23,299 nt of DNA from an uncultured Deinococcales bacterium (GTDB lineage Bacteria; Deinococcota; Deinococci; Deinococcales; JAAFIG01): contig CAXTTL010000051.1 of NCBI GenBank assembly GCA_964247135.1, forward strand, positions 1-23,299, given 5' to 3'. The notes beneath the pieces were generated by a model, which was not told the DNA's origin, made no database searches, and saw only the letters and a list, made by a program, of their open reading frames with translations. Positions within the stretch are counted from its first letter, which is position 1; every line of letters begins with the position of its first letter. The position numbers and the translations under genes were made by a program. Below, in pieces: positions 16 through 23,299 of this stretch.

Positions 16-1104
16 ATGAGCTTGATTGCAACCAAACGAACTCGAGAAAAAACCGCCAGTGATCGAATCAGGGATGCACAATCAATTCGTTCAATTGTTG
101 TCTCGGTTCTTGTGACGCTATTTGTTGGCTGGCTGGCTTTTGTCTTTTTAACACCGCTTTATGAGCTGCTCAATGCCAGTTTGGGTGCATCATCTCGAGA
201 ACCAAATCAACCTTATGGACCTTATGTTGGTAAAATTTTTACTTATGAAGATAAAGACTTAAGCGTGTATAAAGTACCAGTCGATGGTCAAATAAGGGAA
301 TTGGCATTAATCGAACCAGGGCGTGCAAACAGTGTCTTCATTGATCCCAGCAATCCAACAGTTAAAATTAATTACCCAGGCTCATACCGAGCACTTGATC
401 GTTTATGGGTTTTTAAGCCTCAATTTAAGAATTATGTAGATGCTTGGAATAACTTGCCCAATGGTTTTGCCAGAGGCTTGTTAAATACTTTTTTAATTGC
501 GGGTTTAAGTACACTTGGAATATTAATCAGCAGTTTGTTTACAGCTTACGGTCTGGCAAGATTTAATTTGCCGGGTAAAGATTTAATGTTGGGTATTGTG
601 ACTGCCACTTTAATGTTGCCATCAATTGTATTGTTTGTCCCTCAATACATTATGTTTTTTACAGTTGGCTGGGTTGGAACGTGGTTACCGCTTATTGTTC
701 CAAATTTTTTCGGTAACGCTTTTTCAATCTTTTTGTTGCGTCAATTTTTTATGGCAATTCCACGCGAGTTTGACGAAGCCGCCAAAGTAGACGGGGCAAA
801 TCCATTGCACATTCTTTGGTATATCTTGCTGCCTCTATTGCGTCCTGCCGTGATTGCGGTTGCCATTATCAACTTTATTATCGTTTGGAATGATTTCTTT
901 AATCCAACCCTGTACTTGGCTGGAAAAACCGAACTGATGCCGCTCTCTGTACTGATTCGCGCCTTCAGTTCGGCTCGAGGCAGCACCGACCCCCAAATGA
1001 TTTCGGCTGCTGCCGTCATTGCCACGGTCGTCCCAATGGCGCTGTTCTTGTTGGCGCAAAAACCCTTTATTCGTGCGGTCACCATGCCAGGTTTAGACAA
1101 ATAA
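16..1104 (+). CDS. Carbohydrate ABC transporter permease (MalG/CUT1 type)
   Basis: Multiple hydrophobic helices; EAA loop 'FDEAAKVDGA'; RBS AGGAG at 1-5. Confidence 0.9.
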   Translation: MSLIATKRTREKTASDRIRDAQSIRSIVVSVLVTLFVGWLAFVFLTPLYELLNASLGASSREPNQPYGPYVGKIFTYEDKDLSVYKVPVDGQIRELALIEPGRANSVFIDPSNPTVKINYPGSYRALDRLWVFKPQFKNYVDAWNNLPNGFARGLLNTFLIAGLSTLGILISSLFTAYGLARFNLPGKDLMLGIVTATLMLPSIVLFVPQYIMFFTVGWVGTWLPLIVPNFFGNAFSIFLLRQFFMAIPREFDEAAKVDGANPLHILWYILLPLLRPAVIAVAIINFIIVWNDFFNPTLYLAGKTELMPLSVLIRAFSSARGSTDPQMISAAAVIATVVPMALFLLAQKPFIRAVTMPGLDK

Positions 1105-1168
1105 CTTAAAACTTTGCCTGGCTTTTAAGACTCTAGAAAATCTGATGTCTCGAGCGAGGTGGTACGGC

Positions 1169-2191
1169 ATGAAACGCATTTTGGGATTGATTGTAGTCTT
1201 GGTCGCGGGGGTTGTGGTGTTTGCACAGGACAACCCGAACCCAAGTACAACCACCGAAAATCCAGTCTTTGCAACAAATCGTTTGTTGGCACGTAGCGTC
1301 AATTTTGGCAATGCGCTCGAGGCTCCTGGTGAGGGCGCATGGGGCATCACCTTAAACGAAAATTATTTTGAACTGGTAAAAAAAGCTGGTTTTACGGCGA
1401 TTCGTTTGCCCGCCAACTACAACGCACATGCAGACCAAAAGGCGCCGTACAAAGTCCAGCGCGAGTTTATGTTGCGGATCGACTGGGCAATACAAAACGC
1501 CAAAAAGCGTGGTTTGGCGATCATCATTGACTTGCACAATTACGAAGACTTCTGCACCAAACCCACCCAGAATGAAGATCGCTGGCTTGGCATCTGGCGC
1601 CAAATTGCGACCCGTTACGCGAATCAACCCGAGAGCGTTATTTTTGAACCCTTCAATGAACCGCACGACAAACTCGAGCCATTCTGGAACGATTATTTTG
1701 CCAAGGTCTTGGCGGTCATTCGTGAACGCAACCCAATTCGGGCGGTGGTCATGGACGGCAACGGTTGGAGCAACGCGGAGCGCATGACCGAATTGCAAAT
1801 TCCAAACGACCCGAACCTGATTTTGACCTTTCACAATTACACGCCGTTTCAGTTCACCCATCAGGGTGCGGAATGGTGGGCGGACGGCGCAAAATACTTG
1901 GGTACGAAATGGAATGGCACCCCTGCCGAGCAAGCGGTGGTAACTGATTACATCGAGAAAGCCGAAAAAATTGCGCAATCGGCAAACCTGCCGTTGTACA
2001 TGGGTGAGTTTGGCGCATACCGAAAAGCCGACATCGCCTCGAGAATCCGTTGGACGACCTTCACCCGCCAAACCGCCGAGCGCAAAGGGATTTCTTGGGG
2101 GTACTGGGAATTTGCTTCGGGATTTGGAATTTATGACCCGTTAATGAAACAATGGCGTACCGATTTGTTAAACGCAGTTATTGGTCAATAA
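1169..2191 (+). CDS. GH5 endoglucanase/cellulase, secreted
   Basis: Motifs 'VNFGNALEAP', 'IIDLHNY', acid/base 'NEPH' and nucleophile 'GEFG'; signal peptide MKRILGLIVVLVAGVVVFA; start moved to ATG 1169 after GAGGTGG. Confidence 0.9.
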   Translation: MKRILGLIVVLVAGVVVFAQDNPNPSTTTENPVFATNRLLARSVNFGNALEAPGEGAWGITLNENYFELVKKAGFTAIRLPANYNAHADQKAPYKVQREFMLRIDWAIQNAKKRGLAIIIDLHNYEDFCTKPTQNEDRWLGIWRQIATRYANQPESVIFEPFNEPHDKLEPFWNDYFAKVLAVIRERNPIRAVVMDGNGWSNAERMTELQIPNDPNLILTFHNYTPFQFTHQGAEWWADGAKYLGTKWNGTPAEQAVVTDYIEKAEKIAQSANLPLYMGEFGAYRKADIASRIRWTTFTRQTAERKGISWGYWEFASGFGIYDPLMKQWRTDLLNAVIGQ

Positions 2192-2280
2192 GTTTTGAAT
2201 CTCGGGATATTTGAACAACACCAGGCTCGAGGTTTTGCTCACATTAAAAAAACCAAAATCGATTTCAGTAAAGGACAACC

Positions 2281-3615
2281 ATGATTAACCGTTCGGAATT
2301 TCCCAAAAACTTTGTCTGGGGTGCAGCCACCTCGAGCTTTCAAATTGAGGGCGCCACCACCGCCGATGGGCGCGGTCCAAGCATCTGGGATACCTTCGCC
2401 GCCACGCCGGGAAAGACCCGCAATGGCGACATCGGCGAACCAGGCTGCGACCATTACCACCGCTACCAGAGCGACCTTGACCTGATGAAAGAACTCAACC
2501 TCGAGGCGTACCGATTTTCCACCGCTTGGTCGCGCGTGCTGCCACTTGGTCGCGGGAAGGTCAATGAAAAAGGCATGGGGTTTTACGAACGCCTGGTCGA
2601 TGGTCTTCTGACGCGAGGCATCACGCCGTGGCTGACCTTGTACCACTGGGATTTGCCGCAAGCCCTGGAAGATTTGGGCGGTTGGGCATCTCGAGATACC
2701 GTTCACGCCTTTGAGGAGTACGCCCACGTCATGTCTGAACGTCTTGGCGATAGGGTCAAGCACTGGATTACCCACAACGAACCGTGGTGCACCGCCTACC
2801 TGGGTTATCAGGTCGGTCATTTTGCCCCAGGCATCAGCGATCTCAAAACTGGCATTCAAGCCTCGCATCATCTGCTCTTGTCGCACGGTTTGAGCGTGCC
2901 GATCATTCGTGAAAATGTGCAGGATGCCAAAGTTGGCATCACCTTAAATTTGTGGCCCGTTCATGCCCTGACCGACTCGAGCGAGGATCAAGCCGTGGCA
3001 AAACGCCTCGATGGTTTCAGCAACCGTTGGTATTTGGACCCATTGTACGGACGCGGTTATCCAGAAGACAGCTTGGCTATTTTGGGCGAATTTGCACCCG
3101 ATGTTCAAGCGGGCGATCTAAACAAAATTGCTGTGAAAACCGATTTTATCGGCGTCAATTATTACATGCGTAACTTGGTGAAATATAATCCAGAAGCAGA
3201 AAACGGCTTTGAATTTGTCAAATCTGATCTCGAGCGCACCGATTTTGATTGGGAAATTTACCCCGAGGGTTTGACCGAACTTGCCCTGCGTTTGGGCACC
3301 GATTACCAAGCCAAAGAAATTTACATCACCGAAAACGGCTCGTGTTACGACGACACCATGATTGACTCCCAGGTCAACGACGAAAAGCGCCGCAAATACC
3401 TCGAGCTTCATTTGGAAGCCTCGAGCGAGGCGGTCAAGCAGGGTGCGCCTTTAATGGGGTATTTCGCCTGGTCGTTGATGGATAATTTTGAATGGGCAGA
3501 AGGCTATTCCAGACGGTTTGGCATTGTGCACGTGGATTTTGAAACCCAGGTGCGCACGATCAAAAGTTCGGGCAAGTTCTATCAAAACTTTTTAAAAGGC
3601 AGCGTGCTCGACTGA
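2281..3615 (+). CDS. GH1 beta-glucosidase
   Basis: Motifs 'FVWGAATSSFQIEG', 'TLYHWDLP', 'HNEPW', 'ITENG', 'DNFEWAEG'. Confidence 0.95.
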   Translation: MINRSEFPKNFVWGAATSSFQIEGATTADGRGPSIWDTFAATPGKTRNGDIGEPGCDHYHRYQSDLDLMKELNLEAYRFSTAWSRVLPLGRGKVNEKGMGFYERLVDGLLTRGITPWLTLYHWDLPQALEDLGGWASRDTVHAFEEYAHVMSERLGDRVKHWITHNEPWCTAYLGYQVGHFAPGISDLKTGIQASHHLLLSHGLSVPIIRENVQDAKVGITLNLWPVHALTDSSEDQAVAKRLDGFSNRWYLDPLYGRGYPEDSLAILGEFAPDVQAGDLNKIAVKTDFIGVNYYMRNLVKYNPEAENGFEFVKSDLERTDFDWEIYPEGLTELALRLGTDYQAKEIYITENGSCYDDTMIDSQVNDEKRRKYLELHLEASSEAVKQGAPLMGYFAWSLMDNFEWAEGYSRRFGIVHVDFETQVRTIKSSGKFYQNFLKGSVLD

Positions 3616-4568: not shown

Positions 4569-5630
4569 ATGAACATTGCCATTGTCGGATGCGGAAATAT
4601 TGCAGGACCTTACAGCAAAGACATCAAACAACACCCGAGCCTCAAGCTGCTTGGATTTTCGGACATTGACCTTGCTCGAGCGCAAGCTTTTGCCAGCGAA
4701 CACGGCGGGAAAGCCTACGAAAGTCTCGAGGCGTTGCTGGCAGACCCCAAAATTGAACTGGTCGTGAATTTAACGATTTTTGGGGCGCATTACGAGGTCA
4801 TCAAAAAAGCGCTCGAGGCTGGGAAGCACGTTTACAGCGAAAAACCGCTGGCGCTCGTCAGCGCCGAGGCGAATGGGTTGGTCGAACTCGCCGCCGCCAA
4901 AGGTTTAAAACTGGCTGGCGCACCGATCACCTTCTTGGGTGAAGCCCAGCAAACCGCCATGAAACTGATCCGCGAGGGCAAAATTGGTGATGTGCGCGTG
5001 ATTTACGCCGAAGTGAACCACGGGCGAATTGAGAGTTGGCATCCCAACCCAGCGCCGTTTTATGCCGTCGGACCGATGCTCGACGTTGGCGTGTATCCAC
5101 TGGCTTTAATCACCGCGCTGTTCGGACCAGCCTCGAGACTCACCGCCTTTGCCAAAACTTTAAAACCAAACCGCATCACCAAAGACGGACAGCCTTTCAC
5201 CATCGAAGCCCCAGATTTTTACGTGGTCAATATTGAATTCCCCAGCGGTTTGCTCGTGCGCCTGACCGCCGATTTTTACGTCTCAAACAAGACCCTTCAA
5301 GGCGAAGGCATCGAATTTCACGGCGACATTGGATCGCTGCATTTGCACTCGTGGTTCTCCGCCACCAGTGGACTCGAGTACGCCGAATTCGGCAAAGATT
5401 ACGAAGCCTTACCGCTCGCTCGAGCAGCCACCGTCGGCATTGACTGGGCGCGAGGATTGCAAGATTTTAGCGACGCCATCAAAGAAAACCGAGTCTCGAG
5501 GGTCACTGGCGCTCATGCCGCGCACGTGGTCGAAATTTTGGAAGCCACCAACGAAAGCGCCAAAACGGGCAAAACCATCGAATTGCACTCGAGGTTTACG
5601 CCGCCAGAGGCGATGGATTGGGCGAAATAG
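4569..5630 (+). CDS. Gfo/Idh/MocA family NAD(P)-dependent oxidoreductase
   Basis: Rossmann 'IAIVGCGNIA', 'GKHVYSEKP', 'MLDVGVY'; RBS AAGGAG favours ATG 4569. Confidence 0.9.
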   Translation: MNIAIVGCGNIAGPYSKDIKQHPSLKLLGFSDIDLARAQAFASEHGGKAYESLEALLADPKIELVVNLTIFGAHYEVIKKALEAGKHVYSEKPLALVSAEANGLVELAAAKGLKLAGAPITFLGEAQQTAMKLIREGKIGDVRVIYAEVNHGRIESWHPNPAPFYAVGPMLDVGVYPLALITALFGPASRLTAFAKTLKPNRITKDGQPFTIEAPDFYVVNIEFPSGLLVRLTADFYVSNKTLQGEGIEFHGDIGSLHLHSWFSATSGLEYAEFGKDYEALPLARAATVGIDWARGLQDFSDAIKENRVSRVTGAHAAHVVEILEATNESAKTGKTIELHSRFTPPEAMDWAK

Positions 5631-5690: not shown

Positions 5691-5737
5691 CCCTCATCCC
5701 CGACCCTTCTCCCAAGCGGGGAGAAGGGAGCTTTTTT
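5691..5737. repeat. Intergenic palindromic element, probable terminator between convergent genes
   Basis: CCCTCATCCCCGA followed by stem CCCTTCTCCC (5704-5713) / GGGAGAAGGG (5719-5728), then a T tract. Confidence 0.6.
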
Positions 5738-5768
5738 GCTTTACGAGTGTGGCTCGAGCCTCGAGTTT

Positions 5769-8237
5769 TTAACCCAGAGTGATTTCGACGTTGTGCTCTT
5801 TCCCGTCGCCAACGAACGGAATGGGCGCGGTTGGATTACACTCTTGTCCGTCAACAATCAATTTGGCGACGCCTTTGGACACATGGTTCGGATTTTTGAC
5901 CTCGATCTTGTACGTATCACCACGGTACTTGCGCGAGGCGCCAAAACCATCCCAGCCTTTGGGAATGCACGGGTTAACCCGCAAGCCGGTGTAATCGGGT
6001 TTAACCCCAAACAAGCCCTGCGAAACAGTCACAAAGGTCCAAGCGGCGGTGCCGGTCAACCAGGAATTCTTGGCTTCACCAAAGCAAGGCGCGTCTTTGC
6101 CCGCGATCATCTGCGCATACACATAAGGCTCAGACCTGTAGGTTTCAATCTGGTCTTGTTTGGCGCTTGGGCAAATTGAAAGGTAATACTCGAGCGCCCG
6201 ATCCCCCTCGCCGAGCATACACCAAGCCAAGTGAATCCAAGTGTTGTTGTGCGCGAAAATCCCCGCGTTTTCCTTGACCCCTGGCGGGTACGACGTGACC
6301 TCACCAAGCTCGAGGTGGTATTCGCTGAAGGCGGGTTGTTGCAAGACAATACCGTTTTTGGTGTACAAATGCTTGTGAACACTCTCGAGCGCCTGACGTG
6401 CCCGACCATTGTTTTTGCCCGCGCCACCCAGCACCGCCCACCCTTGAGATTCGATAAAAATTTTGCCCTCAATGTTGCTGCTCGAGCCGATGACCTGCCC
6501 TTTGGCGTCGTAAGCGCGGGTGTACCATTCGCCGTCCCAGGTTTTGGTTTCAATCACGTTCAGCATGTCGTCATAACCAGCTTGCATTCTGGCGGCATCC
6601 TCGGGTTTCTTAAGAAAGTTGTAAAGCTCGATCATGTCGTTGCTGGCGTACAAGAACAAACCGGCGATCATGACCGATTCGGCTATCGAATCTTTGACAT
6701 CGCCCGCCGTTTGAAACGATTCGTTCGGTTCGCTCGAGAAACAGTTCAGGTTGAGGCAATCGTTCCAGTCTGCATGACCAATCAGCGGCAAACCGTTCGG
6801 ACCACGTTTTTTCATGGTGTAAGCAATCGAAATCTCGAGGTGATGCAGCAGAGATTCGCGCTCGGTTTCCTGGGCGTAACTGAGGTCTGCATAACCCGTC
6901 GGTGCGTCCAGAATCGAGACATCGCCCGTTTCCTTGATGTACGCGCAAGTCGAGAGGATCAACCACAAGTGATCGTCGTAAAACTCGCCGCCGATGTCCG
7001 CATTGCCTTTTTTGGTCAATGGCTGATACTGGTGGTAACACGTGCCGTCAGAAAGTTGCGTGGCGGCAATGTCCAAAATTCGTTCTCGCGCCCTCGAGCC
7101 GATCATGTGCACAAAACCCAGCAAATCTTGGTTGCTGTCACGGTAACCCATGCCGCGCCCGATCCCCGTTTCGTACATCGACGCCGACCTTGACATGTTA
7201 AACGTCGCCATGCACTGATACTGATTCCAAACATTCAACATGCGGTTGGCGTGCTCGTTCGGCGAATGCGCCTGAAAATTCTCGAGCAAATCGTCCCAGT
7301 ATTTTTTGAGGTTGGCGAGCGCCGCATCCACCGCTCCAGGCGCGGAATACTTGTCCATGATCGCCTGTCCAACGGTTTTGTTCATGACAAACTTCGATTC
7401 AAACTTCGGTTCATCGCCCTGTTCGACATACGCCAGCACAAACGCAAACGATTCTTCCGCCCCAGGACTAAGTGTCAAATTAATTTGATGCGAACCAATC
7501 GGATTCCAACCGAAAGCCTTGGAATTGCTCGCCTGCCCCGCGAACGGCACTCGAGCCTCGTGCAAGCCCTCGTGAATGCCGACAAAGGCGTCTCTGGAGG
7601 TGTCAAAGCCATCAATCTTGCGGGTGCAACCAAACAGCGTGTAATGGTTGCGGCGCTCGCGGTATTCGGTCTTGTGGTAGATCGCAGAACCCTCAACCTC
7701 GACCTCGCCAATCGAGTAGGTGCGTTGGTAATTGGTCATGTCGTTTAGCGCCTCATAAAACGCGAACTCCTGATACGAGAAAATCTTCGGCGATTTTGTG
7801 ACACTCGAGCGATTGCGAACCGTGACCTTCCAAACCTCGAGGTTCTCGCCTGGAGGGACGAAAAACAGCATTTCGACTTCCAGACCATCACGCGCTCCAA
7901 TGATCTTCGTGTAACCCAACCCGTGACGGCATTCGTAAGAGACATCTTTGGCTTTGATCGGTTTCCAACCAGGATTCCAGACCGCGCCCGCATCATTGAT
8001 GTAAAAATAACGCCCGCCCAAATCATAAGGCACGTTGTTGTAACGGTAACGGGTTAAACGCCGCAGCTTGGCATCTTTCCAAAAGGTGTAACCGCCCGCC
8101 GTGTTGGTGCAAAGCCCAAAAAACTCATCCTGTCCCAAATAATTGAGCCAAGGCAATGGTGTGTCAGGACGGGTGATGACATACTCTCGAGCGGGGTCAT
8201 CAAAATAACCGTAATCATTTGGGGCTTGGTTTGTCAT
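5769..8237 (-). CDS. GH94 glycoside phosphorylase (cellobiose phosphorylase-like)
   Basis: 'YGYFDDPAREYVITRPDTPLPWLNYLG', 'RGMGYRDSNQD', catalytic 'ADWNDCLNL', 'KENAGIF', 'NSWLTGTAAW'; start moved to ATG 8237 after AAGGA. Confidence 0.92.
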   Translation of the reverse strand: MTNQAPNDYGYFDDPAREYVITRPDTPLPWLNYLGQDEFFGLCTNTAGGYTFWKDAKLRRLTRYRYNNVPYDLGGRYFYINDAGAVWNPGWKPIKAKDVSYECRHGLGYTKIIGARDGLEVEMLFFVPPGENLEVWKVTVRNRSSVTKSPKIFSYQEFAFYEALNDMTNYQRTYSIGEVEVEGSAIYHKTEYRERRNHYTLFGCTRKIDGFDTSRDAFVGIHEGLHEARVPFAGQASNSKAFGWNPIGSHQINLTLSPGAEESFAFVLAYVEQGDEPKFESKFVMNKTVGQAIMDKYSAPGAVDAALANLKKYWDDLLENFQAHSPNEHANRMLNVWNQYQCMATFNMSRSASMYETGIGRGMGYRDSNQDLLGFVHMIGSRARERILDIAATQLSDGTCYHQYQPLTKKGNADIGGEFYDDHLWLILSTCAYIKETGDVSILDAPTGYADLSYAQETERESLLHHLEISIAYTMKKRGPNGLPLIGHADWNDCLNLNCFSSEPNESFQTAGDVKDSIAESVMIAGLFLYASNDMIELYNFLKKPEDAARMQAGYDDMLNVIETKTWDGEWYTRAYDAKGQVIGSSSNIEGKIFIESQGWAVLGGAGKNNGRARQALESVHKHLYTKNGIVLQQPAFSEYHLELGEVTSYPPGVKENAGIFAHNNTWIHLAWCMLGEGDRALEYYLSICPSAKQDQIETYRSEPYVYAQMIAGKDAPCFGEAKNSWLTGTAAWTFVTVSQGLFGVKPDYTGLRVNPCIPKGWDGFGASRKYRGDTYKIEVKNPNHVSKGVAKLIVDGQECNPTAPIPFVGDGKEHNVEITLG

Positions 8238-8404
8238 GATTTTCCTTAAGATGCAGCTTGATTGAAGTGCCGAGGCTAAAAGATGAAGATGACAGAAGTT
8301 TCTCGAGCATTTTTGTTTAGTAATCATAACCTACGGAATGTTAAAAAACGAACGATCTCGAGTCATACCTGATACAGAATTTCAGTCACAGAGGTAAACT
8401 AACA

Positions 8405-9058
8405 ATGATGCGTTCAGAATTGACCCTCGAGTTACTGCAAACAGAAGCGAAGCAATTCGCCACTACGCAATCATTGGTTCACGAATCTAGCTTGTACGGC
8501 GTGACAGACGGTAAAGCAGTTGGAACACACATTGAAGCAAAATTTGTCAATCACTTGTTCGAGCGCTACAGCTTTACTCGAGGGAATGCCGCCAAAGGTA
8601 TTGACTTGCCTTCGATCAACCTGGACATCAAAGTGACCAGTGTAATCCAACCGCAATCGTCATGCCCATTTCGTTCGGCACGGCAAAAAATCTTTGGGTT
8701 GGGTTACTCATTGTTGGTGTTTGTTTATGAAAAAACCGACGACCAAAAACGCAAAACCTCCAACCTCAACATTTTACACACTGTCTTTGTCGCGGCAGAA
8801 CGCACCGCCGATTTCACAACCACACGGTTATTGCGCGAGACAATTAATACTGGAGGCAACAAAGAAGATTTGGTCGCCTTGATGTTTGACCGCAATTTAC
8901 CACTCGATGAAATCGAAGCCGAAAAAATTGCGCTGGAATTGCTCGAGAAACCAGCATTGCAAGGGTATTTGACGATTTCCAATGCTTTGCAATGGCGATT
9001 GCAGTATGCACGGGTGATTCAGGAAGCTGGACAAGTTGAAGGTTTGGTTCGTTTATGA
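8405..9058 (+). CDS. Type II restriction endonuclease, NspV-like (putative TTCGAA specificity)
   Basis: PD-(D/E)xK-like 'GIDLPSINLDIK'; blocks 'LYGVTDGKAVGT', 'QPQSSCPF', 'SNALQWRLQY' recalled from the NspV family but not verified by search; stop overlaps the MTase start (ATGA). Confidence 0.7.
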   Translation: MMRSELTLELLQTEAKQFATTQSLVHESSLYGVTDGKAVGTHIEAKFVNHLFERYSFTRGNAAKGIDLPSINLDIKVTSVIQPQSSCPFRSARQKIFGLGYSLLVFVYEKTDDQKRKTSNLNILHTVFVAAERTADFTTTRLLRETINTGGNKEDLVALMFDRNLPLDEIEAEKIALELLEKPALQGYLTISNALQWRLQYARVIQEAGQVEGLVRL

Positions 9059-10599
9059 CCTTGCTAGCTTCCAAGCCCCCTGTCGAGTTTGGAGATTTTC
9101 AAACACCCCCAGAACTTGCCCGAAAAGTTGTAGACCTGGCTCGAGTACGTGGTTTTAAGCCGAAAAGCATTTTCGAGCCAACCTGCGGTGTTGCGAATCT
9201 CTTAAGGGCGGCGCTTGATACTTTTGAAATTGAACACGCATTGGGAGTTGAAATTCAAGCCGATTATGTGGCTCGAGCCAGGTCAAAATGCAGTGCTCGA
9301 GTTGAAATTTGGCATTCGGATTTCTTTGAACTAAATCTTAAAGAATTGATTTCAAAATTGACCCCACCCATTTTAATTGTTGGGAATCCACCGTGGGTGA
9401 CAAGTGCAACCATTGGCGTTGCTGGCGGTACGAACCTTCCTAGAAAGCAAAATCTTCAAGGGTTCTCGGGACTAGATGCCATGACGGGCAAAAGCAATTT
9501 CGATATTTCGGAAGCAATTTTAATTCGATTGCTCGAGTGCGTCTCTCAAACCTCAAACATGTTGGTCATGATCGTCAAATCAAGTGTGGCACGAAAGATT
9601 TTGCGTTACGCTGCAAAACATAAACTTGGAATTGCAAACTGGGCATTGTATGGCATTGATGCCAAAAAAGAATTCAACGCTGCCGTTGATGCCAGCGTTT
9701 TTGTCTGCCAAGGAAATCGAGCAATCCCAAATTATGACTGTCAAGTATTTGCTGACCTTGAGTCAGGCATACCAACGCATATAATTGGATTTCAAAATGG
9801 ACATTTGATCGCAGATGTTAAAGCCTACACTCGAGCGCAGGCGTTCATTGGGCAAAATGCTCTTGAATGGCGTTCTGGTATTAAGCACGATTGTGCAAAA
9901 GTTATGGAATTGCGCCAAGTTGAAACTGGTTTTGAAAACGGTTTGGGCGAACGTGTCAACCTTGAAATGGATTATCTTTACCCAATGCTTAAAAGCTCTG
10001 ATCTTGGCAATTCAAGGCTCGAGCCTCGGTTGTGGATGATCGTTCCACAAAAATTTATTGGTGAGAACACAAACAATGTACAGTCACGCGCTCCTCTAAC
10101 TTGGGCATACCTGACGCGTCACCGTGAAGCCTTACAAGCAAGGCAAAGTTCGATTTACAAGAACAATCCAGAATTCAGTATTTTCGGCGTCGGAGATTAC
10201 AGTTTCTCGAGTTGGAAAGTTGCCATTTCGGGTTTGTACAAAAGCCTCGAGTTTCAAGTGATAGCGCCTTGGAATAATAAACAGGTGGTCTTTGATGACA
10301 CTTGTTACTTCTTGCCATGTCAAACCGAAGGAGAAGCACTCGTGATTCATGCGCTTTTATGCTCCAGTGAAGCTCGAGATGCCTTAAGTGCCTTGGTGTT
10401 CTGGGATGAAAAACGCCCAATTACCAAAGAACGTCTGAACCAACTTGAAGTGCAAACCCTTGCCGTTCGTTTAAAATCTCGAGTGATGGCTAAGTTGTTG
10501 GCAAAGTATTCAGACACATTAGTTGAAATTCAGATTCGTGATGCGTTCATCAAATTATTCCAAGAATCTAACCAAGATGTACCTTTGCTTTTCGGTTAA
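9055..10599 (+). CDS. N6-adenine DNA methyltransferase, gamma class (M.NspV/TaqI-like)
   Basis: Motif X 'GDFQTP', motif I 'FEPTCGVAN', motif IV 'GNPPW', C-terminal TRD; coupled to the upstream endonuclease. Confidence 0.85.
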   Translation: MTLLASKPPVEFGDFQTPPELARKVVDLARVRGFKPKSIFEPTCGVANLLRAALDTFEIEHALGVEIQADYVARARSKCSARVEIWHSDFFELNLKELISKLTPPILIVGNPPWVTSATIGVAGGTNLPRKQNLQGFSGLDAMTGKSNFDISEAILIRLLECVSQTSNMLVMIVKSSVARKILRYAAKHKLGIANWALYGIDAKKEFNAAVDASVFVCQGNRAIPNYDCQVFADLESGIPTHIIGFQNGHLIADVKAYTRAQAFIGQNALEWRSGIKHDCAKVMELRQVETGFENGLGERVNLEMDYLYPMLKSSDLGNSRLEPRLWMIVPQKFIGENTNNVQSRAPLTWAYLTRHREALQARQSSIYKNNPEFSIFGVGDYSFSSWKVAISGLYKSLEFQVIAPWNNKQVVFDDTCYFLPCQTEGEALVIHALLCSSEARDALSALVFWDEKRPITKERLNQLEVQTLAVRLKSRVMAKLLAKYSDTLVEIQIRDAFIKLFQESNQDVPLLFG

Positions 10600-13991: not shown

Positions 13992-14044
13992 TTCTTCCTC
14001 CTTTGTCGCGCCAGCAACACAAAACCGCGTTGCAGGCAAGTTTA

Positions 14045-14243: not shown

Positions 14244-14272
14244 AGGGTATCACAGAGTGCTTAAGATGTAAA
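14244..14272 (-). promoter_or_regulatory. Putative sigma70 promoter of rplJL
   Basis: Minus strand TTTACA - 17 nt ending TGA - TACCCT (extended -10). Confidence 0.5.
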
Positions 14273-14338
14273 GGTTTTGAGATTTTGGTTTTGTAGGGTG
14301 CGCTTCTTGACCATAAAATGCACCTTGTAAGTTGGTAG

Positions 14339-14532
14339 TGGAACTCAGCACGACAGATCGCAATGCACCCTGATCCTTGAGATCGTCCCGAAGCGAGATC
14401 GTCGTGCTGCCCGTTTCCAATCGAGTCCGAACGGCTTCTTGACCCTACTACGCCACCTGACGGGGCTGGGTCGCTGCATGAACCTCGAGTTCGCTTTGCA
14501 AGGATGGACGATTGTTGGAAACCCACGTTCCA
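14339..14532 (+). ncRNA. Putative bridge RNA of the IS110 element
   Basis: Two stem/internal-loop domains: CAGCACGAC 14346-14354 / GTCGTGCTG 14401-14409 and GTTTCCAA 14413-14420 / TTGGAAAC 14515-14522; the loops carry target- and donor-matching segments. Confidence 0.8.
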
Positions 14533-14542
14533 GGAGGTCAAA

Positions 14543-15499
14543 ATGCGGAAAGAAGTTTTCATCGGTGCAGACATTAGTAAAACCAGATTAGACGTGTTTA
14601 ACCTTGTCACAGGCGAGATTCTCGAGTTTGAGAACAACCCTGCTGGAATCAAGAAATTCCTGAAATACGCTCGAAAAGCTAAACCCACACTCATCACCTG
14701 CGAAAGCACTGGCGGACTCGAGCAACCTTTGCTCCGCGCGTGTGCCGATACTAAACTCCCAATTGCAGTCCTCAACCCAAGACAAGTCCGCGATTTCGCC
14801 AAAGCAATGGGTAAGTTCGCAAAAACCGACGCGATAGACGCAACCATACTGGCAGAGTTCGGCTCACGAATGCGTCCAGAATTAACCACACCCGCACCAG
14901 AAGAGCTTCGAGCACTCGAGGCAGTCATGAGCCGACGCGCCCAGATTCTCGAGATGATCACAATGGAAACAAATCGTCTTGGCAGCACTCGAGACGCGAA
15001 GGCTCGAGCCAGTTTGGAAGCTGTGATTGAATTTCTGAAAGAACAAGTCAAAGACATGGATTCGCAGATGCTCGAGCTTGTGCGTTCAAACTTGGAACTC
15101 AAAACCTTAGATGAGTTGTTGCAGAGCGTTCCTGGTGTTGGACCAGTGCTGTCTGCGACGTTACTCTCGAGTTTACCCGAACTTGGTCGTGATTCTCGAG
15201 GAGCAATTTCTTCCTTGGTGGGGGTTGCGCCTTTGAACCATGATAGTGGTTCGCACCGTGGAGTACGATTCATTCGTGCTGGTCGTGGGAATGTGCGTTG
15301 TGCATTGTACATGGGGACTCTTTCGGCTGTGCGTTGGAATCCTGCATTGCAGGTGGTGTACGAGCGTTTGGTGTTAGCTGGGAAGGCGAAGATGGTGGCT
15401 TTAGTGGCGTGTATGCGGCGTTTGTTGGGGATATTGAACGCGATTGTGCGGGATCGGAAACCTTGGATGGATGTGACATTGGAGGCTGTAGGGACTTGA
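14543..15499 (+). CDS. IS110 family transposase/recombinase (DEDD RuvC-like plus Tnp_20 domain)
   Basis: 'IGADISK', 'CESTGG', 'KTDAIDA', 'SVPGVG', catalytic-Ser region 'DSGSHRG'; RBS AGGAGG 14532-14537 supports ATG 14543. Confidence 0.95.
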   Translation: MRKEVFIGADISKTRLDVFNLVTGEILEFENNPAGIKKFLKYARKAKPTLITCESTGGLEQPLLRACADTKLPIAVLNPRQVRDFAKAMGKFAKTDAIDATILAEFGSRMRPELTTPAPEELRALEAVMSRRAQILEMITMETNRLGSTRDAKARASLEAVIEFLKEQVKDMDSQMLELVRSNLELKTLDELLQSVPGVGPVLSATLLSSLPELGRDSRGAISSLVGVAPLNHDSGSHRGVRFIRAGRGNVRCALYMGTLSAVRWNPALQVVYERLVLAGKAKMVALVACMRRLLGILNAIVRDRKPWMDVTLEAVGT

Positions 15500-15667
15500 C
15501 TTTTAACACGGCTGCTTCGGGCAGGGTCGCCGTGCGCACCGTCAAGCGCGTACCACCGATTTGGAATTGGTGCGGGCAGATTTTGACAGGCACGAATTTT
15601 GCTCACTCGAGATACCCACCACAATAAACTGGATGCAAAGCCACGGGTTTTGCTCGAGATATCAGGT

Positions 15668-16852
15668 TCAATCAGGGTTGTTGGTTTCAAGCAAATTGTG
15701 AAACGCAAATCCCGCCGCGCCAATCGTGACCGAGTCCAACCCAAACGAGCAACGCTCGACGGTCACACTGCGGTAATCTATGCCAAACAAGCGCCGCTCG
15801 AGTTCTTGGGTGGCGGGTTGAATTAGCGCGTCGCCAAGTTCGGCGACGCGTCCGCCCAAAATCATCAGTTTGGGATCAAAAATATTGGCGAGGTTGCCCA
15901 GAAACGTTCCCAGGTGAATGGCGGTTTTGTGAATGATTTTGACCACAATCGGGTGGCGTTGCTCGAGCAACTCGAGAATCTGTTTTAAATCTGGGCGCTC
16001 GCCCGTGCCAGTCTGGATGGCGCTTTGAATGGCGTTTAAACTGAACAGTGTTTCGGCGCAGCCGACGCTGCCGCACAAGCATTTTTGACCATTTGGGGCG
16101 ACGGTCATGTGTCCCCACTCGCCCGCAAAACCGCGCTGCCCGTGATACAGCCGGTGATCGAGGATCAAGCCGCCGCCGATGCCAGTGGTCATGTGGACGT
16201 ACAGCAGGTCGCCGTCGTGTTTGTGCGATCCAAACAAATATACCGCCATGACCGATAAATTCGCGTCGTTGTCAACAAAAATGCGGTCTGCTGGGATGTC
16301 TGGGATTTGCTTTTGCAACAAACTTAAAAATGGCATGTTTTCCCAACCCAAACTTGGGGCTTTGAGCACCAAACCTCGACCGGCATCGACTGGTCCTGGA
16401 ATGCCGACGCCCAAACCGAGGATGGTTCTGGCGTTTAAAGTCTGATTGGCTCGCAGTTTTTTGACGCATTTCGCCAGACTCGAGATGGCGCTCGTGACGT
16501 TGCTGAAATCCCCCGTAATGCTTTCTCGAGCCAGAATTTCGCCGTCGATGTTGATGGCGACACAACTGATCTCAAACAGGTTTATTTCTGCGCCCAATAA
16601 CGCAAACCTCAAGTCGTTTAAAAAAAGTGGAATCGAAGGTCGCCCCATCGCCAAACTGATCCCACCCTCGCCAATGCGCAGCCAACCGTCCAGCTCGAGA
16701 TCGGTCACCACCGAACTGACGGTGCTTTTGGTAATGCCGAGTTCTTTGGCGACATTGCTTCTCGAGATGCCAGGGTTTTGCCAGACCAGTTTGATGACGC
16801 CACTGCGGTGGGCGCGTTTGGAAGTCATTTTTTCGTTTGAGTTTGAGGTCAT
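15668..16852 (-). CDS. ROK family transcriptional repressor (XylR-like)
   Basis: N-terminal HTH 'ISRSNVAKELGITKSTVS', 'GRP', 'DNDAN', 'GEWGHM...CLCGSVGCAE'. Confidence 0.92.
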   Translation of the reverse strand: MTSNSNEKMTSKRAHRSGVIKLVWQNPGISRSNVAKELGITKSTVSSVVTDLELDGWLRIGEGGISLAMGRPSIPLFLNDLRFALLGAEINLFEISCVAINIDGEILARESITGDFSNVTSAISSLAKCVKKLRANQTLNARTILGLGVGIPGPVDAGRGLVLKAPSLGWENMPFLSLLQKQIPDIPADRIFVDNDANLSVMAVYLFGSHKHDGDLLYVHMTTGIGGGLILDHRLYHGQRGFAGEWGHMTVAPNGQKCLCGSVGCAETLFSLNAIQSAIQTGTGERPDLKQILELLEQRHPIVVKIIHKTAIHLGTFLGNLANIFDPKLMILGGRVAELGDALIQPATQELERRLFGIDYRSVTVERCSFGLDSVTIGAAGFAFHNLLETNNPD

Positions 16853-17080: not shown

Positions 17081-17234
17081 ATTTGTGCTCTGTCTTGAGC
17101 CTTTGGACTGTCTTGCATCCGCCTCGATTTGGGGTACAATGCAACCGATTCCAAGAACTCAAAAACGGCAAGAAATTGAGTAAGTCGTGCTTTGTCACGG
17201 ATGGGATTTTAGCGTCACCGTTTCAGGAGGTTGT

Positions 17235-18290
17235 ATGAAGAAATGGCAAATTGGTGCAATTGGTTTACTCTCCGCGAGCTTGCTCTCGGGTTCTTTCATG
17301 GCGCTCAACAGCAGCGCAGGCGCACAAGGCGGAATGATTGTTGGCGTTAGCTGGAGCAACTTCCAAGAGGAACGTTGGAAGACAGACGAAGCCGCCATCA
17401 AAGGCGCACTCGAGAAGGCAGGCGCAACCTACGTCAGCGCCGACGCCCAAAGCTCGAGCGAAAAGCAACTCAACGACATTGACAGCCTGATCGCCAAGGG
17501 TGCAAAAGCGCTGATCATCCTTGCGCAAGACAAGGACGCCATCGGACCGGCAATCGCCAAAGCCAAAGCCGCAAAAATCCCAGTCTTGGGTTACGACCGT
17601 TTGATCGAAGACCCATACGCCTTCTACTTGACGTTTAACAACATCGAAGTTGGTCGTATCATGGGACGCGAAGTTTTGAAGGTTCGTCCCAAGGGCAACT
17701 ACGTGTTTATTAAGGGTGACCCAGGCGATCCAAACGCTGGATTCGTTTACGGTGGACAAAAAGAAATCTTGCAATCCGCCATTGACAAAGGTGACATTAA
17801 AGTTGTTGGCGAACAAGCCACCGACGGCTGGAAGCCAGACGTTGCCCAAAAGAACATGGAAGGCATCCTGACCCAAAACGGCAACAAAGTCGATGCGGTC
17901 ATGTCATCGAACGACGGCATGGCAGGCGGCGCCGTTGCAGCCCTCGCCGCCGTCGGCTTGGCTGGCAAAGTCGCAGTTTCAGGACAAGACGGCGACCTTG
18001 GCGCACTCAACCGAGTCGCAAAAGGCACCCAAACCGTCAGCGTCTGGAAAGACTCACGCGCCCTGGGCAAAGCCGCAGGCGAAATCGCGGTTCAACTCAT
18101 CAAGGGCGGCAAAGTTACCGGCGCTAGCGTCTTCTCTGACGGTCCAAAGAAAGTCAAGATGAACGCCGTGCTGCTCAAGCCAGTCGGTATCACCAAGCGC
18201 AACCTGAAAGTTGTTTTGAACGCCGGTTGGATCACCAAACAAGTGCTCTGCGAAGGCGTAGACGCTAAAAAAGTCAGCGTCTGTAAGTAA
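17235..18290 (+). CDS. xylF: D-xylose-type ABC transporter substrate-binding protein
   Basis: '[16 protein letters not shown]', 'YDRLI', 'VSGQDGD', 'QTVSVWKD'; signal peptide; RBS AGGAGG. Confidence 0.85.
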
Positions 18291-18313
18291 TAACACGTAA
18301 TTAGCATCTCGGG

Positions 18314-18357
18314 TTGCGGGCAGGCACGCGGAAATGGTGTCTGCCCGCAATTTCTTT
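18314..18357 (+). terminator. Stem-loop after the binding-protein gene (partial terminator or mRNA stabiliser)
   Basis: TTGCGGGCAGGCAC / GTGTCTGCCCGCAA followed by TTTCTTT. Confidence 0.65.
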
Positions 18358-18390
18358 AAAAGCTCGAGCTTACAAAAATTTGAGGAAAAA

Positions 18391-19608
18391 ATGCAAAATT
18401 CTGCAAACAAACAAACGAACCGTGCGGGACTCTCGAGTCTTGGCGTTGATGTTCGTCAATTGTTGATGATTGGCGTGCTGGCGGCGGTCTGGATTATTTT
18501 TCACATCATCACGCTCTCCATGAATCAACCTGGAAAATTTTTGAGTCCAGCCAATTTGTACAACCTTGCCGTTCAAACTTCGGTGGTCGGCATCATGGTG
18601 GGTGGCATGGTGCTTATCATCGTGATGCGCCAAATTGACCTCAGCGTTGGCAGTGTGCTCGGTTTCACAGCGATGGTCATGGCACTGATGCAAGCCCCGA
18701 TACCGCTCGGCGCGGGGTGGTTCTGGGGCATCACGGTGGTGCTGGGTTTGGGACTCGCTGTTTTGATCGGCGCTTTTAACGGTTCAATCGTTGCATACTT
18801 GGGCGTTCCCGCCTTTGTGGTCACGATGGCGGGTTTGCTAATCTTCCGCAATGCCTCGTTTGTCGCCAGCGGACGCACCTTGTCCAATTTCCCAGCCGAA
18901 TTTTTGTGGTTTGGGCAAGGTTCGATAGGCGAAATTCCAAGCTGGATTTTTGGTGGTCTCGCCATCATTTTTATTGTTTTTCAAGCCCTGAACAACCGCA
19001 ACAGGCGTGTCAAAAACGGTTTTGCCGTGCGTCCAATGTGGGCAGAATGGTTGGTCAACGGTGCGTTAATTGTTTTTGTGCTGGGTTTTGTGCTCATCAT
19101 GAATTCGTATGTGCCATTTGAAGGTGCTCCGCCAGCAGGCATTCCAGTTCCGGTCATGATTACCCTGGTGGTGCTCGGATTCCTGTCCTGGATGACCCAG
19201 AACACCCGTTTTGGACGTTACATTTACGCCATCGGCGGCAACCCAGAGGCGGCGCTGCTGGCAGGTATCAACGTCAAACGCACGATGGTCTTCGTGTTCA
19301 TGCTGATGGGCTTTTTAACAGGTCTAGCCGCCATCGTTCAATCGGCGCGTCTGACCTCCGCCACCACAAACTTGGGCAAAGACCTCGAGCTTTCGGTGAT
19401 CGCGGCAGCCGTGATCGGCGGCACGGCGCTTTCGGGCGGAAGCGGCACCATCATTGGCGCGGCGCTCGGCGCAATTTTTATGGAAAGCCTGCGCAACGGT
19501 CTGGTGCTTTTGGGCGTTCAAACCGAATGGCAGAACATCATCATTGGCGTTGTGCTGTTGATCGCCGTGATTTGGAACACCTATGTTGCTCGAACAAGGA
19601 AGGTTTGA
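18391..19608 (+). CDS. xylH: Sugar ABC transporter permease (XylH-like, CUT2)
   Basis: 'IDLSVGS', 'TRFGRYIYAIGGNPEAA', 'IAAAVIGG'; start ATG 18391 after GAGG. Confidence 0.85.
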   Translation: MQNSANKQTNRAGLSSLGVDVRQLLMIGVLAAVWIIFHIITLSMNQPGKFLSPANLYNLAVQTSVVGIMVGGMVLIIVMRQIDLSVGSVLGFTAMVMALMQAPIPLGAGWFWGITVVLGLGLAVLIGAFNGSIVAYLGVPAFVVTMAGLLIFRNASFVASGRTLSNFPAEFLWFGQGSIGEIPSWIFGGLAIIFIVFQALNNRNRRVKNGFAVRPMWAEWLVNGALIVFVLGFVLIMNSYVPFEGAPPAGIPVPVMITLVVLGFLSWMTQNTRFGRYIYAIGGNPEAALLAGINVKRTMVFVFMLMGFLTGLAAIVQSARLTSATTNLGKDLELSVIAAAVIGGTALSGGSGTIIGAALGAIFMESLRNGLVLLGVQTEWQNIIIGVVLLIAVIWNTYVARTRKV

Positions 19609-19647
19609 CATGATGCCAGAATCTCGAGTTCTTAGAGGAGTGAAATC

Positions 19648-20403
19648 ATGACAAACAGTCCTTTGGTTGAAATGAAGAATATTTCGTTGCGTTTCGGTGG
19701 AAACCAAGCGTTAAACGACGTGTCCATCAATCTTTATCCTGGCGAAGTGGTCGGGCTTCTGGGTCACAACGGCGCGGGAAAAAGTACACTGATTAAAGTG
19801 CTTTCTGGAGCGTACAAATCCGACTCTGGGCAGATTTTTGTGGACGGGTCTGAAGTCAAAATCAACAACCCTCAAGATTCGCAAAAGCACGGCATCGAAA
19901 CGATTTATCAAAGCTTGGCACTTGCAGACAATCTTGATGCGGTCGCCAACGTTTTTCTCGGGCGCGAAAAAGTCAACGGCGTGGTGCTCGACGAAGATAC
20001 GATGGAAGTCGAAGCCCGCAAAGTCCTGGATCGTTTGCGCGTCAAAATCCCGAGCCTGCGCGTGCCTGTTTCCAACATGTCCGGCGGTCAACGCCAAACC
20101 GTCGCCATCGCTCGAGCCGTGTACTTTAAAGCCAAAGTGCTGATCATGGACGAACCCACGGCGGCGCTCGGACCCGAAGAAACCCAGAAGGTCGGCGAGC
20201 TGATCAAAGCCCTGAAAGCCGAAGGCGTCGGGATTTTCTTGATCTCGCACGATTTGCACGACGTGGCAGACCTTTCTGATCGCTTGACCGTCATGAAAAA
20301 CGGACGGGTGGTTGGCACGGTCAACACCAAAGATGTCAGTGAAGACGAAGTGCTCGGCATGATTATTGCCGGCACAACCCCAAAGCACCTTTCAAACAGA
20401 TAA
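19648..20403 (+). CDS. Sugar ABC transporter ATP-binding protein (single NBD)
   Basis: 'GHNGAGKST', 'MSGGQRQ', 'LIMDEPT', 'ISH'. Confidence 0.93.
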
Positions 20404-22624: not shown

Positions 22625-22682
22625 GATTTTGCGTTTTGAAAGGTACAAGTTGGAAATCTCGAGAAGTGGCAATTCATGCCGT

Positions 22683-22707
22683 GGGTGAACACAAGGTTCA
22701 CCCCTAC
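22683..22707 (-). repeat. REP-like element (GTAG plus palindrome)
   Basis: Minus strand GTAG-GGGTGAAC-CTTGT-GTTCACCC. Confidence 0.6.
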
Positions 22708-22731
22708 AAAAACCAAAAAACAGGAGAATCC

Positions 22732-23299
22732 ATGAACATCACAGCCGAACAATTCGCCCAACTGACCCCAGGAACTCGAGTGCCCATTTACCGTGAAGTG
22801 CTGGCAGACCTCGAGACGCCCGTCAGCGCGTACCTGAAAGTCACGCAAGGCAGCCCGATGAATTTCTTGCTTGAGAGTGTTGAAGGCGGCGAACGTTGGG
22901 CGCGGTACTCGTTCATTGGTGTGGGCGCGAAAGGCAGCATCACCGTATTTGGGCACCACGTCAAACTGACGGGTTCGTTTGGCGATGAAGAATTTCACTC
23001 GAGCGACCCGTTGAAGGTTTTATACAAAAAAATTGTCACCCGCGTCGAACCTGACCCCGTCCTGCCAGCGCTTTTTGGCGGCGCAATCGGTTACTCGAGT
23101 TACGACCTGGTGCGTTGCTACGAAAATCTGCCCGTCAAAAACCCTGACGAACTCGAGATTCCAGACCTCAAATTTATCGAACCCGAAGGCATGGTGATTT
23201 TTGACCACCTCAAACACCGACTTTTTATTGTCGCCACCGCCGAAACGGGCATGATCTCGAGTTACGTGCACGCCAAAGCCGTGGTTCAAAAATTGCACC
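22732..23299 (+). CDS. trpE: Anthranilate synthase component I (5' part, runs off the window)
   Basis: Manual translation MNITAEQF...REVLADLETPVSAYLKV...FLLESVEGGERWARYSFIG; RBS AGGAG; absent from the ORF track because it has no stop in the window. Confidence 0.93.
   Translation, partial: MNITAEQFAQLTPGTRVPIYREVLADLETPVSAYLKVTQGSPMNFLLESVEGGERWARYSFIGVGAKGSITVFGHHVKLTGSFGDEEFHSSDPLKVLYKKIVTRVEPDPVLPALFGGAIGYSSYDLVRCYENLPVKNPDELEIPDLKFIEPEGMVIFDHLKHRLFIVATAETGMISSYVHAKAVVQKLH

Follow-up and report, generated by a model that had tools for sequence, protein, structure and literature searches.

CTCGAG as a highly iterated palindrome in a family of Deinococcales genomes

The hexamer CTCGAG is a highly iterated palindrome (HIP) in the genome of an uncultured Deinococcales bacterium and in the family to which it belongs, i.e., a word acting at the level of DNA that is neither a codon effect, nor a repeat element, nor an artefact. 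Our analysis departed from a stretch of 23,299 nucleotides (GenBank assembly GCA_964247135.1, contig CAXTTL010000051.1, positions 1 to 23,299), here called the window, which is contig C51 of the source assembly (genome G000; 5.09 Mb in 386 contigs, 84% complete, 52.7% G+C). From its letters alone, a previous annotation (the sequence-only reading) had inferred that this lineage carries an iterated motif of its own, comparable to HIP1 of cyanobacteria, and this inference is borne out: the word is found genome-wide, in all codon phases as well as in spacers, is conserved in place, and extends over the whole family. CTCGAG is retained copy by copy, and new copies are likewise favoured one by one, at odds of about 27:1 for the perfect hexamer over any one-off variant; this bias is alike across the codon phases, spacers and resident mobile DNA and at every local G+C, being weaker in tRNA genes; it overrides the choice among synonymous codons and many amino-acid preferences, and it is old and lineage-wide. 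On balance, we favour the reading that CTCGAG is a word of the HIP type, maintained by a fixation bias that acts locally on each copy, and recognised by a putative symmetric factor.

In the window, the number of copies given by the sequence-only reading was reproduced exactly, against 3.94 expected from a dinucleotide-preserving shuffle (n = 100; standard deviation 2.19, maximum 11), and none of the 100 shuffles reached 136. These copies extend from one end of the window to the other:

Positions 41-23261, no strand assigned: CTCGAG, all 136 copies of the window (first 41-46, last 23256-23261), 109 inside open reading frames (ORFs) and 27 outside.

As had been claimed, the sites occupy all three codon phases and also stand between genes: with hyphens marking codon borders, 43 are read as CTC-GAG, 30 as xCT-CGA-Gxx and 36 as xxC-TCG-AGx, and the 27 others lie in the 2.1 kb outside ORFs. 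Genome-wide, G000 holds 33,925 copies, i.e., one per 150 bp (~6,660 per Mb), with an observed-to-expected ratio (O/E) of 24.8 relative to composition; CTCGAG is its top hexamer, more than twice as frequent as any other, and the next-ranked hexamers all overlap it. Confinement to a single contig, a concern raised together with the original claim, is answered by the presence of the word on all 297 contigs of at least 5 kb, at 2.6-10.5 copies per kb. The parallel concern about an artefact is answered by the comparison set, which comprised 18 further family genomes, independently assembled (19 in total, from 5 genera, G011 being a single contig): all 18 are enriched, at 4.3-6.8 CTCGAG per kb, which is also the outcome of the check in related genomes that had been proposed earlier.

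Only the perfect hexamer is exceptional. Single-mismatch neighbours had been described as occurring a handful of times each, and their counts in the window are indeed low (0-10 each); the accompanying interpretation as a depletion did not stand, since these counts lie at chance level (~5-6), and genome-wide the 18 one-off neighbours range from 0.08 to 1.76 times expectation, transitions being the highest and the two lowest containing the avoided word CTAG. The ratio of the site to its mean one-off neighbour is ~27 (33,925 versus a mean of 1,245), from which a one-step reversible model would give a scaled fixation bias of about 3.3. GAGCTC, the mirror palindrome, is absent from the 5.09 Mb of G000 and has at most 25 copies in most family genomes, and other palindromes are nearly absent from G000 too, including GGGCCC (1 copy), CGGCCG (3 copies) and GGCC (380 copies, O/E 0.016). 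The same is observed for GRGCYC, CTAG and many other 6-bp palindromes. A homologue of the SacI-family endonuclease (PF09566) was identified in G000 (G000:C320:1304-1735) and in 4 of its 5 congeners, and was not found in the genera g3, g4 and g5.

For coding DNA we relied on our own crude gene calls (longest non-overlapping ORFs; 4,922 genes, 87.9% of G000), and the null was obtained by shuffling synonymous codons within each gene, which retains the protein as well as the already inflated codon usage and Leu-Glu content. The enrichment persisted under this codon-preserving null, a check that had been suggested beforehand: 29,164 coding sites were observed versus 4,148 ± 55 after the shuffle (seven-fold), distributed as 17,664 versus 3,178 in the CTC-GAG phase, and as 4,717 versus 377 and 6,783 versus 592 in the other two. 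Together with the density of intergenic DNA, which exceeds that of coding DNA (7.6 versus 6.5 sites per kb), this surplus over a shuffle that keeps Leu-Glu upholds the earlier statement that dipeptide preference alone cannot explain the pattern. The mark left on proteins is considerable, with Leu-Glu as the most over-represented dipeptide of the G000 proteome (23,032 versus 9,537 expected, 2.42-fold); 17,664 of these 23,032 pairs (77%) are spelt CTCGAG, and CTC accounts for only 24.5% of Leu codons. At the level of a single protein, the mark can be followed in one gene of the window:

Positions 5769-8327, minus strand: GH94 (cellobiose-phosphorylase-like) gene, assigned by Pfam, with 13 sites; aligned with 27 homologues of other lineages.

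In this alignment the sites coincide partly with ancestral residues and partly with lineage-specific replacements. Thus, the Leu-Glu encoded at window 7281-7286 is Leu-Ser or Leu-Gly in 23 of the 27 homologues, the FSS at 6733 is FST in 18 of them, and the GSS at 6481 is GSK in 12. The tRNA genes of G000 (aragorn) hold 10 sites versus 34 expected at genome density. Several tRNAs of this genome have the word within stems, e.g., two tRNA-Glu (3' acceptor strand) and tRNA-Leu(GAG), the latter twice. Around 3,741 fully non-coding sites no extended consensus was found, and the commonest 14-mer has only 9 copies, so the word is not a dispersed repeat element such as a repetitive extragenic palindromic (REP) sequence or a miniature inverted-repeat transposable element (MITE); the flanks of these sites are weakly and symmetrically biased (A at -3, 44%; T at +3, 43%; G at -1, 35%; C at +1, 36%).

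Conservation in place was assessed in a pairwise alignment of 433 kb between G000 and the same-genus genome G005 (85% identity). A total of 2,329 of 2,948 sites (79%) were conserved versus ~46% for other hexamers, which places CTCGAG first among the 1,707 hexamers that occur 100 times or more. Split by class, 83% of the CTC-GAG sites were conserved, 69% and 79% of those in the other phases, and 72% of the intergenic sites (238 of 332), the intergenic background being 45%. The third position of CTC was retained in 1,406 of 1,544 codons inside the word (91.1%) versus 1,073 of 1,807 outside (59.4%), and that of GAG in 1,413 of 1,544 (91.5%) versus 1,199 of 1,742 (68.8%); likewise, TCG was retained in 89.2% of cases inside the word versus 70.2% outside, and CGA in 83.4% versus 69.5%. 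Single-difference exchanges, mostly transitions, are spread evenly over the three half-site positions (197:200:176), which indicates that the unit is the whole hexamer and that no hypermutable cytosine is involved.

Turnover of the sites continues. The scoring of gains versus losses that had been proposed was carried out on the window in six genomes: among 64 positions covered by at least five of them, 26 sites were conserved in all, 12 were absent from just one and 8 were present in one alone, i.e., 12 losses and 8 putative gains, and several of the latter need two to three base changes. The following sites illustrate this turnover:

Positions 5132-5137, no strand assigned: site private to G000 among 5 same-genus genomes; the others read TTCACG, TTCAAG, TTCACG and CTTGCG.
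Positions 5373-5378, no strand assigned: second site private to G000; the others read GTCGAT, CTTGAT, GTTGAT and CTTGAT.
Positions 13563-13568, no strand assigned: one-transition gain in G005; TTCGAG in G000 and four relatives, CTCGAG only in G005.

Judging from the spellings found in the relatives, the site at 5132-5137 is likely a recent gain, for which two to three base changes would have been needed.

The bias is also uniform with regard to local composition. O/E relative to local composition lies between 22.6 and 26.0 in every G+C bin from 35 to 70%, and at 17.4 in the four segments below 35%; given this flat ratio, composition explains much of the lower site density in low-G+C DNA, and of the 16 stretches above 1.5 kb that lack any site, 11 have a G+C of 43% or less. 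Density is flat along genes, with a modest rise to 11.8 per kb in the 30 bp after stop codons. The spacing of sites is near random (coefficient of variation 0.96), although distances under 20 bp are under-represented (0.33-0.73 of expectation) and those of 60-150 bp over-represented, and counts are sub-Poisson (Fano factor 0.79-0.82 at 150-300 bp). No arrays or unusually dense clusters were found in G000, the maximum being 8 sites in 250 bp, at 3 places; a spacing of 6 never occurs in this genome, as GAGCTC, which is absent from it, would be part of CTCGAGCTCGAG. Furthermore, isolated sites are conserved in 83% of cases versus 75% for those with a neighbour within 30 bp (p = 0.008, with flank identity controlled).

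The lineage carrying the word is not cyanobacterial: the closest public contig is named 'MAG: Deinococcales bacterium', and the genes of the window are those of a sugar-degrading heterotroph. This contig (94% identity over the GH94 protein) contains 79 CTCGAG in 16 kb and no GAGCTC, and the 80 loci compared, from many phyla, have a median of 0.13 CTCGAG per kb. The family is deep, as the L10 protein is only 60% identical between two of its genera. In a sample of 301 genomes of the phylum (including G265, flagged as unpublished, on which no claim rests), density spans 0.01-7 copies per kb. Depletion is seen in g7, the genus with the most genomes (100), at 0.01-0.27 per kb; genus g9 (31 genomes, high G+C) has 0.6-1.6 per kb with GAGCTC equally common, which is the pattern that codon usage would give; and many other genera of the phylum have 1.4-3.5 per kb, far above GAGCTC. 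The extremes outside the family are G253, with 24,536 sites in 3.5 Mb, and G196, with 13,562 in 3.8 Mb. In samples of ~80 kb, G253 shows 6.7 sites per kb (O/E 27.6, no GAGCTC, 49.8% G+C), and G197, which a tool assigned to the same genus, shows 0.36 per kb (O/E 1.4, 50.9% G+C); by translated comparison, both are about equally distant from G000, and L10 was not found in G253.

The word also occurs in viral DNA. Viral contigs were scanned for three sites within ~60 bp, and among the matches listed the clearest was L217, a contig of 14 kb that encodes major tail, tape-measure, endolysin and adaptor proteins and carries 73 sites versus 4.3 expected (5.2 per kb), with 17, 20 and 15 sites by phase and 21 outside long ORFs. 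No similarity of L217 to G000 or to the 301 phylum genomes was found, and L217 was not used as a phage of this lineage. Another viral contig, L211, contains 57 CTCGAG and no GAGCTC in 9.7 kb of its 110 kb, at 64% G+C; its first 141 bases hold three triple clusters. It bears the signature of the bacterial family and may be a prophage or a misfiled chromosomal piece.

Regarding the enzymes that could be connected to the word, the sequence-only reading had pointed to XhoI/PaeR7I-like methyltransferases and to a methylation-linked ratchet. Our search gave no support to this link: the XhoI nuclease family (PF04555) and Vsr (PF03852) were each found in 0 of the 19 family genomes, no shared methylase orthologue was recovered by a census that is incomplete, and no hypermutable cytosine was seen. 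Among 12 other genomes, a XhoI homologue was present in one, G021, the sole case in the order, whose genome has only 1.7 sites per kb; the methylase beside it, used as a probe, gave only motif-level matches in the family (33-47%). C5 methylases (PF00145) were found in 17 of 18 family genomes, and not in G008, with no orthologue shared among them; the only C5 methylase of G011 shares 38% identity at best with those of the other 18 genomes and 28% with that of G196, also a single copy, and both lie in defence islands. PF01555 was not found in G011 or G196, nor PF02086 in G196, where PF02384 gave weak matches only; PF07669 is also present in every low-density family and so does not discriminate, and TaqI_C (PF12950) was found in 6 of 18 family genomes. 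Across PF00145, PF01555, PF02086, PF02384, PF07669 and PF12950, no methylase orthologue common to the high-density genomes was found; since the Pfam models miss at least one real methylase family, that of the window's own methylase, the link between CTCGAG and a methylase is unproven rather than excluded.

This methylase belongs to a restriction-modification (R-M) pair encoded in the window:

Positions 8405-10599, plus strand: type II R-M pair with 13 sites together, consisting of a 217-amino-acid endonuclease (8405-9058) and an overlapping 514-amino-acid methylase (9055-10599).

The endonuclease matches NF052465 (E 1.7e-98; precomputed Pfam PF27258), and the methylase is a predicted gamma-class N6-adenine enzyme with NPPW in its translation and no match in Pfam-A. 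Homologues of this methylase were found in 9 of the 19 family genomes and in none of 12 outside. G005 lacks the pair at the syntenic site and G004 retains only a remnant of 61 residues, yet each of these genomes has 28,000-29,000 sites, so the pair cannot be the general cause of the enrichment. Moreover, the endonuclease family is ~60-65% identical across distant phyla (8,000 matches scored), in organisms without enrichment. As to the specificity of the pair, matches in protein databases and plasmids bear generic names only; a search for solved relatives gave none for the endonuclease and, for the methylase, only a marginal match (E 0.0079) to an L11 methyltransferase; and palindrome avoidance in G000 versus G005 showed no difference pointing to the pair's site. 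In G011, a homologue of the window methylase (59% identity) lies ~0.9 kb from dprA (G011:C1:536788-539819); the two are not adjacent in G009, and their proximity in G011 may be a coincidence.

HIP1 of cyanobacteria (GCGATCGC) is a palindrome over-represented 15- to 300-fold, and its conservation in place between genomes has been interpreted as a sign of selection (Xu, Lawrence and Durand 2018, PMC5861425, available sections). CTCGAG and HIP1 are alike in that both stand in genes and spacers, are conserved in place and lineage-wide, and occur in genomes avoiding many other palindromes; the function of HIP1 has remained unexplained for three decades. Unlike HIP1, CTCGAG has six letters instead of eight and belongs to a different phylum, its one-off variants are even over all positions whereas those of HIP1 are concentrated at the outer letters, and no cognate orphan methylase was found for it in our incomplete, Pfam-based census. 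For HIP1, a periodicity of 10-90 kb has also been reported; the spacing statistics of CTCGAG, obtained from an assembly of 386 contigs, cover short ranges. The density of CTCGAG (~6,660 per Mb) is above the 500-2,500 per Mb given for HIPs by Elhai (2015, PMC4390886; here and below, according to the available sections). The same source describes alternate, hexameric HIPs that replace HIP1 as the top word with O/E ~15 or more, e.g., GGCGCC in Calothrix PCC 7103; these are, as CTCGAG, grossly over-represented 6-base palindromes, but they are sporadic, occur in single strains and come each with a matching methylase (PMC4390886), whereas CTCGAG is kept across a family of 5 genera and, more weakly, across much of the phylum. 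Elhai (2015) makes no mention of CTCGAG, and our literature search found no paper linking this word to iterated palindromes or to Deinococcus or Meiothermus genomes, although supplements to HIP studies may list hexamer statistics. R-M systems of the XhoI/PaeR7I type share the word itself, including the predicted MamA/MSMEG_3214 pair of M. smegmatis (PMC7526240, available sections). Such systems normally go along with avoidance of their word, and the XhoI nuclease is missing from all 19 family genomes.

Two further kinds of system offer partial parallels. The DNA uptake sequences (DUS) of Neisseriaceae and the uptake signal sequences (USS) of Pasteurellaceae are lineage words spread by a drive-like bias, located in genes and terminators, conserved, and leaving a mark on proteins. 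CTCGAG is also lineage-specific, conserved between species and protein-marking; however, those words have 9-12 bases, are non-palindromic and occur about once per kb, whereas CTCGAG is a 6-base palindrome found once per 150 bp without saturation at the kilobase scale. In Escherichia coli, very-short-patch repair by Dcm/Vsr is a sequence-specific mismatch correction that raises the frequency of the methylase word (CCWGG/CTWGG). This effect is small and limited to T:G mismatches, in contrast to a 25-fold excess with six positions equally defended in genomes where Vsr was found in 0 of 19.

The mechanism that we consider for CTCGAG as a HIP-like word under a copy-by-copy fixation bias is that it would be the recognition site of a putative lineage-encoded factor reading it symmetrically, as a dimer would, and that weak selection on each bound copy would maintain it; the role of such a factor would likely lie in DNA handling (protection, packaging or repair) rather than in gene expression. 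Among the possible sources of the bias we tentatively put selection on a recognition site ahead, because of the short-range redundancy signal and the symmetric flanks. This factor is not a conserved XhoI-type R-M system. Several observations weigh against a selected recognition site and should be considered together. The symmetric reader is still putative, and no reader protein was found. Biased repair or gene conversion would yield positional conservation and faster gain equally, and the present data do not separate them from selection. A function with diminishing returns explains the constant 25-fold O/E, whatever the local density, and the near-Poisson spacing no better than does a multiplicative bias blind to function. 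As two palindromes close to each other make a stem, selection against hairpins could account for the short-range deficit. The presence of the word in the phage contig L217, at 5.2 per kb and in all phases, would be most simply accounted for by a mutational or repair bias of the host. Pairs of a site and a non-site differ at 3 or more of the 6 positions in 21.5% of 1,045 cases versus 11% of controls, an excess that a simple one-step model does not predict. Finally, because we called genes as longest ORFs, the gene set contains wrong start codons and some wrong small genes.

The closest alternative is a function-blind ratchet, in which very-short-patch-like repair or gene conversion would resolve mismatches in near-CTCGAG heteroduplexes towards the word, to the detriment of proteins and without any advantage for the cell, methylation being optional. 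We regard this as possible but doubtful. It would account for an O/E of ~25 in all G+C bins, similar across phases and spacers and flat along genes, for amino-acid replacements made to suit the word, for the word in the phage fragment L217, and for the further changes that accumulate after the loss of a site, as if the word were a burden; and a ratchet of this type has been proposed for HIP1 and the hexameric alternate HIPs (Elhai, 2015, PMC4390886). The mismatch-repair version of that proposal, however, saturates near 1 site per kb (PMC4390886), in contrast to 1 per 150 bp here, and its G-meC rule does not fit a G at -1 of only 35-39%. Also against the ratchet stand the lack of Vsr and of the XhoI family (each 0 of 19) and of a methylase orthologue common to high-density genomes (in a census that misses some methylases), the absence of a hypermutable cytosine, and a conservation that depends on neighbouring sites, which a pure ratchet would not lead one to expect. 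A further proposal is a methyltransferase-independent drive of the word, i.e., a lineage-encoded activity biasing mismatch resolution or fixation towards one 6-bp palindrome, each position independently; we hold this to be a speculative reading with a minor share of the probability, under which it might be a prokaryotic, sequence-specific analogue of biased gene conversion. If true, such a drive would write ~34,000 copies into a 5-Mb chromosome, alter codons and amino acids, reach mobile DNA and phages, and switch on or off between close relatives (G253 and G197, 6.7 versus 0.36 per kb).

We deem it improbable that CTCGAG works in the manner of an uptake sequence, marking the DNA of kin for natural transformation so that word-bearing fragments are taken up and recombined more often. 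The word is conserved in place, slightly over-dispersed, enriched after stops (11.8 per kb) and affects the proteome, and USS are likewise reported as conserved and affecting the proteome; in addition, the heavy restriction load and extreme palindrome avoidance (GAGCTC 0, GGCC 380) agree with this idea, and all 5 high-density genomes examined encode ComEC and DprA. These two proteins are, however, nearly universal (ComEC in 10 and DprA in 11 of 14 control genomes), and finding them is thus of little weight. HIP1 has been argued to be a DNA-uptake sequence (PMC13756078, 2026) and, according to a 2024 preprint (10.1101/2024.09.10.611283), raises transformation, both in the available sections. 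Nevertheless, kilobase fragments carry dozens of sites and a drive on single copies should vanish well below 1 per 150 bp; O/E is ~25 at any local density, without saturation near 1 per kb and with redundancy only below ~100 bp; known uptake words have 9-12 bases and no palindromic symmetry; and the phage fragment L217 bears the word. Even less credible, to the point of being hardly tenable, is that CTCGAG is the target of a resident R-M system or orphan methylase, possibly the window pair at 8405-10599. In its favour, the window does encode a type II endonuclease and a predicted N6-adenine methylase with homologues in 9 of the 19 family genomes and in none of the 12 outside, and each cyanobacterial alternate HIP has a cognate methylase (PMC4390886). 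Yet the pair is missing from the syntenic site of G005 and a remnant in G004, both site-rich, no homologue was seen in 10 of the 19 family genomes, the endonuclease family is spread across phyla in organisms without enrichment, and an active nuclease normally drives avoidance of its own site, as seen here for GAGCTC with the SacI-family homologue. We give practically no credence to an origin of the pattern in the composition of codons, dipeptides or bases, in a family of dispersed repeats, or in an artefact of the assembly or the library: CTC-GAG is the commonest phase (17,664 of 29,164 coding sites) and the high-G+C genus g9 reaches 0.6-1.6 per kb with GAGCTC equally common, but the seven-fold excess over the synonymous shuffle, the denser spacers, the lack of GAGCTC, the absence of an extended flank consensus and the 19 independent assemblies refute such an origin. 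A Chi-like hotspot was also rejected; it requires an oriented word, skewed with the direction of replication, and CTCGAG, being its own reverse complement, cannot carry strand orientation.

The significance of these results lies in a second, independent and stronger HIP-like case in another phylum, which turns a cyanobacterial curiosity into a general phenomenon. Compared with HIP1, the word and the phylum are different, the density is ~3-10 times higher, the rewriting of proteins is visible and no cognate methylase is obvious. The range from 0.01 to 7 copies per kb within the phylum, and of 20-fold within one assigned genus, provides natural contrasts for finding the cause. In practical terms, a force at the DNA level distorts Leu-Glu and Ser-Ser/Arg content, codon-pair statistics, k-mer binning and alignment-based rates in these genomes, and the density of CTCGAG constitutes a ready marker of native versus imported DNA.

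An Rfam search of the window gave no match. Three further features of the window bear on the local arrangement of sites:

Positions 5753-5765, no strand assigned: pair of sites with a spacing of 7 bp, on the border of a dispersed 68-bp repeat.
Positions 13417-13469, no strand assigned: L7/L12-L10 spacer with three packed sites, both genes (13023-13397 and 13470-14039) being without any site.
Positions 14227-15744, minus strand: multi-copy, insertion-sequence-like ORF of 505 amino acids with 12 sites (7.9 per kb) and many 65-89% copies per relative genome.

The 68-bp intergenic element (5691-5758) has dozens of copies of 80-90% identity on many contigs and in all five same-genus genomes. No site is found in the L7/L12 and L10 genes or in the ORF at 12338-12739, and the sugar ABC-transporter operon (17187-20403) has only 1.3-2.4 sites per kb, the genes around it having 5-9 per kb. 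The scarcity of the word in the L7/L12-L10 and ABC-transporter genes could stem from high expression, from constraint or from recent import. Neither rpoB (TIGR02013) nor ribosomal protein L16 was found in the G000 assembly, which is 84% complete, and one may speculate that word-poor conserved operons differ enough in k-mer signature to drop out during binning. About 150 bp upstream of the L7/L12 gene (window 12864-13010) have copies of 76% identity on several other contigs of relatives. The 505-amino-acid ORF had no Pfam or NCBIfam match, and a segment of ~35 bp at its end (14289-14326) recurs at 95-100% identity; it looks like an unclassified insertion sequence, and resident mobile DNA of this kind bears the word at full density.

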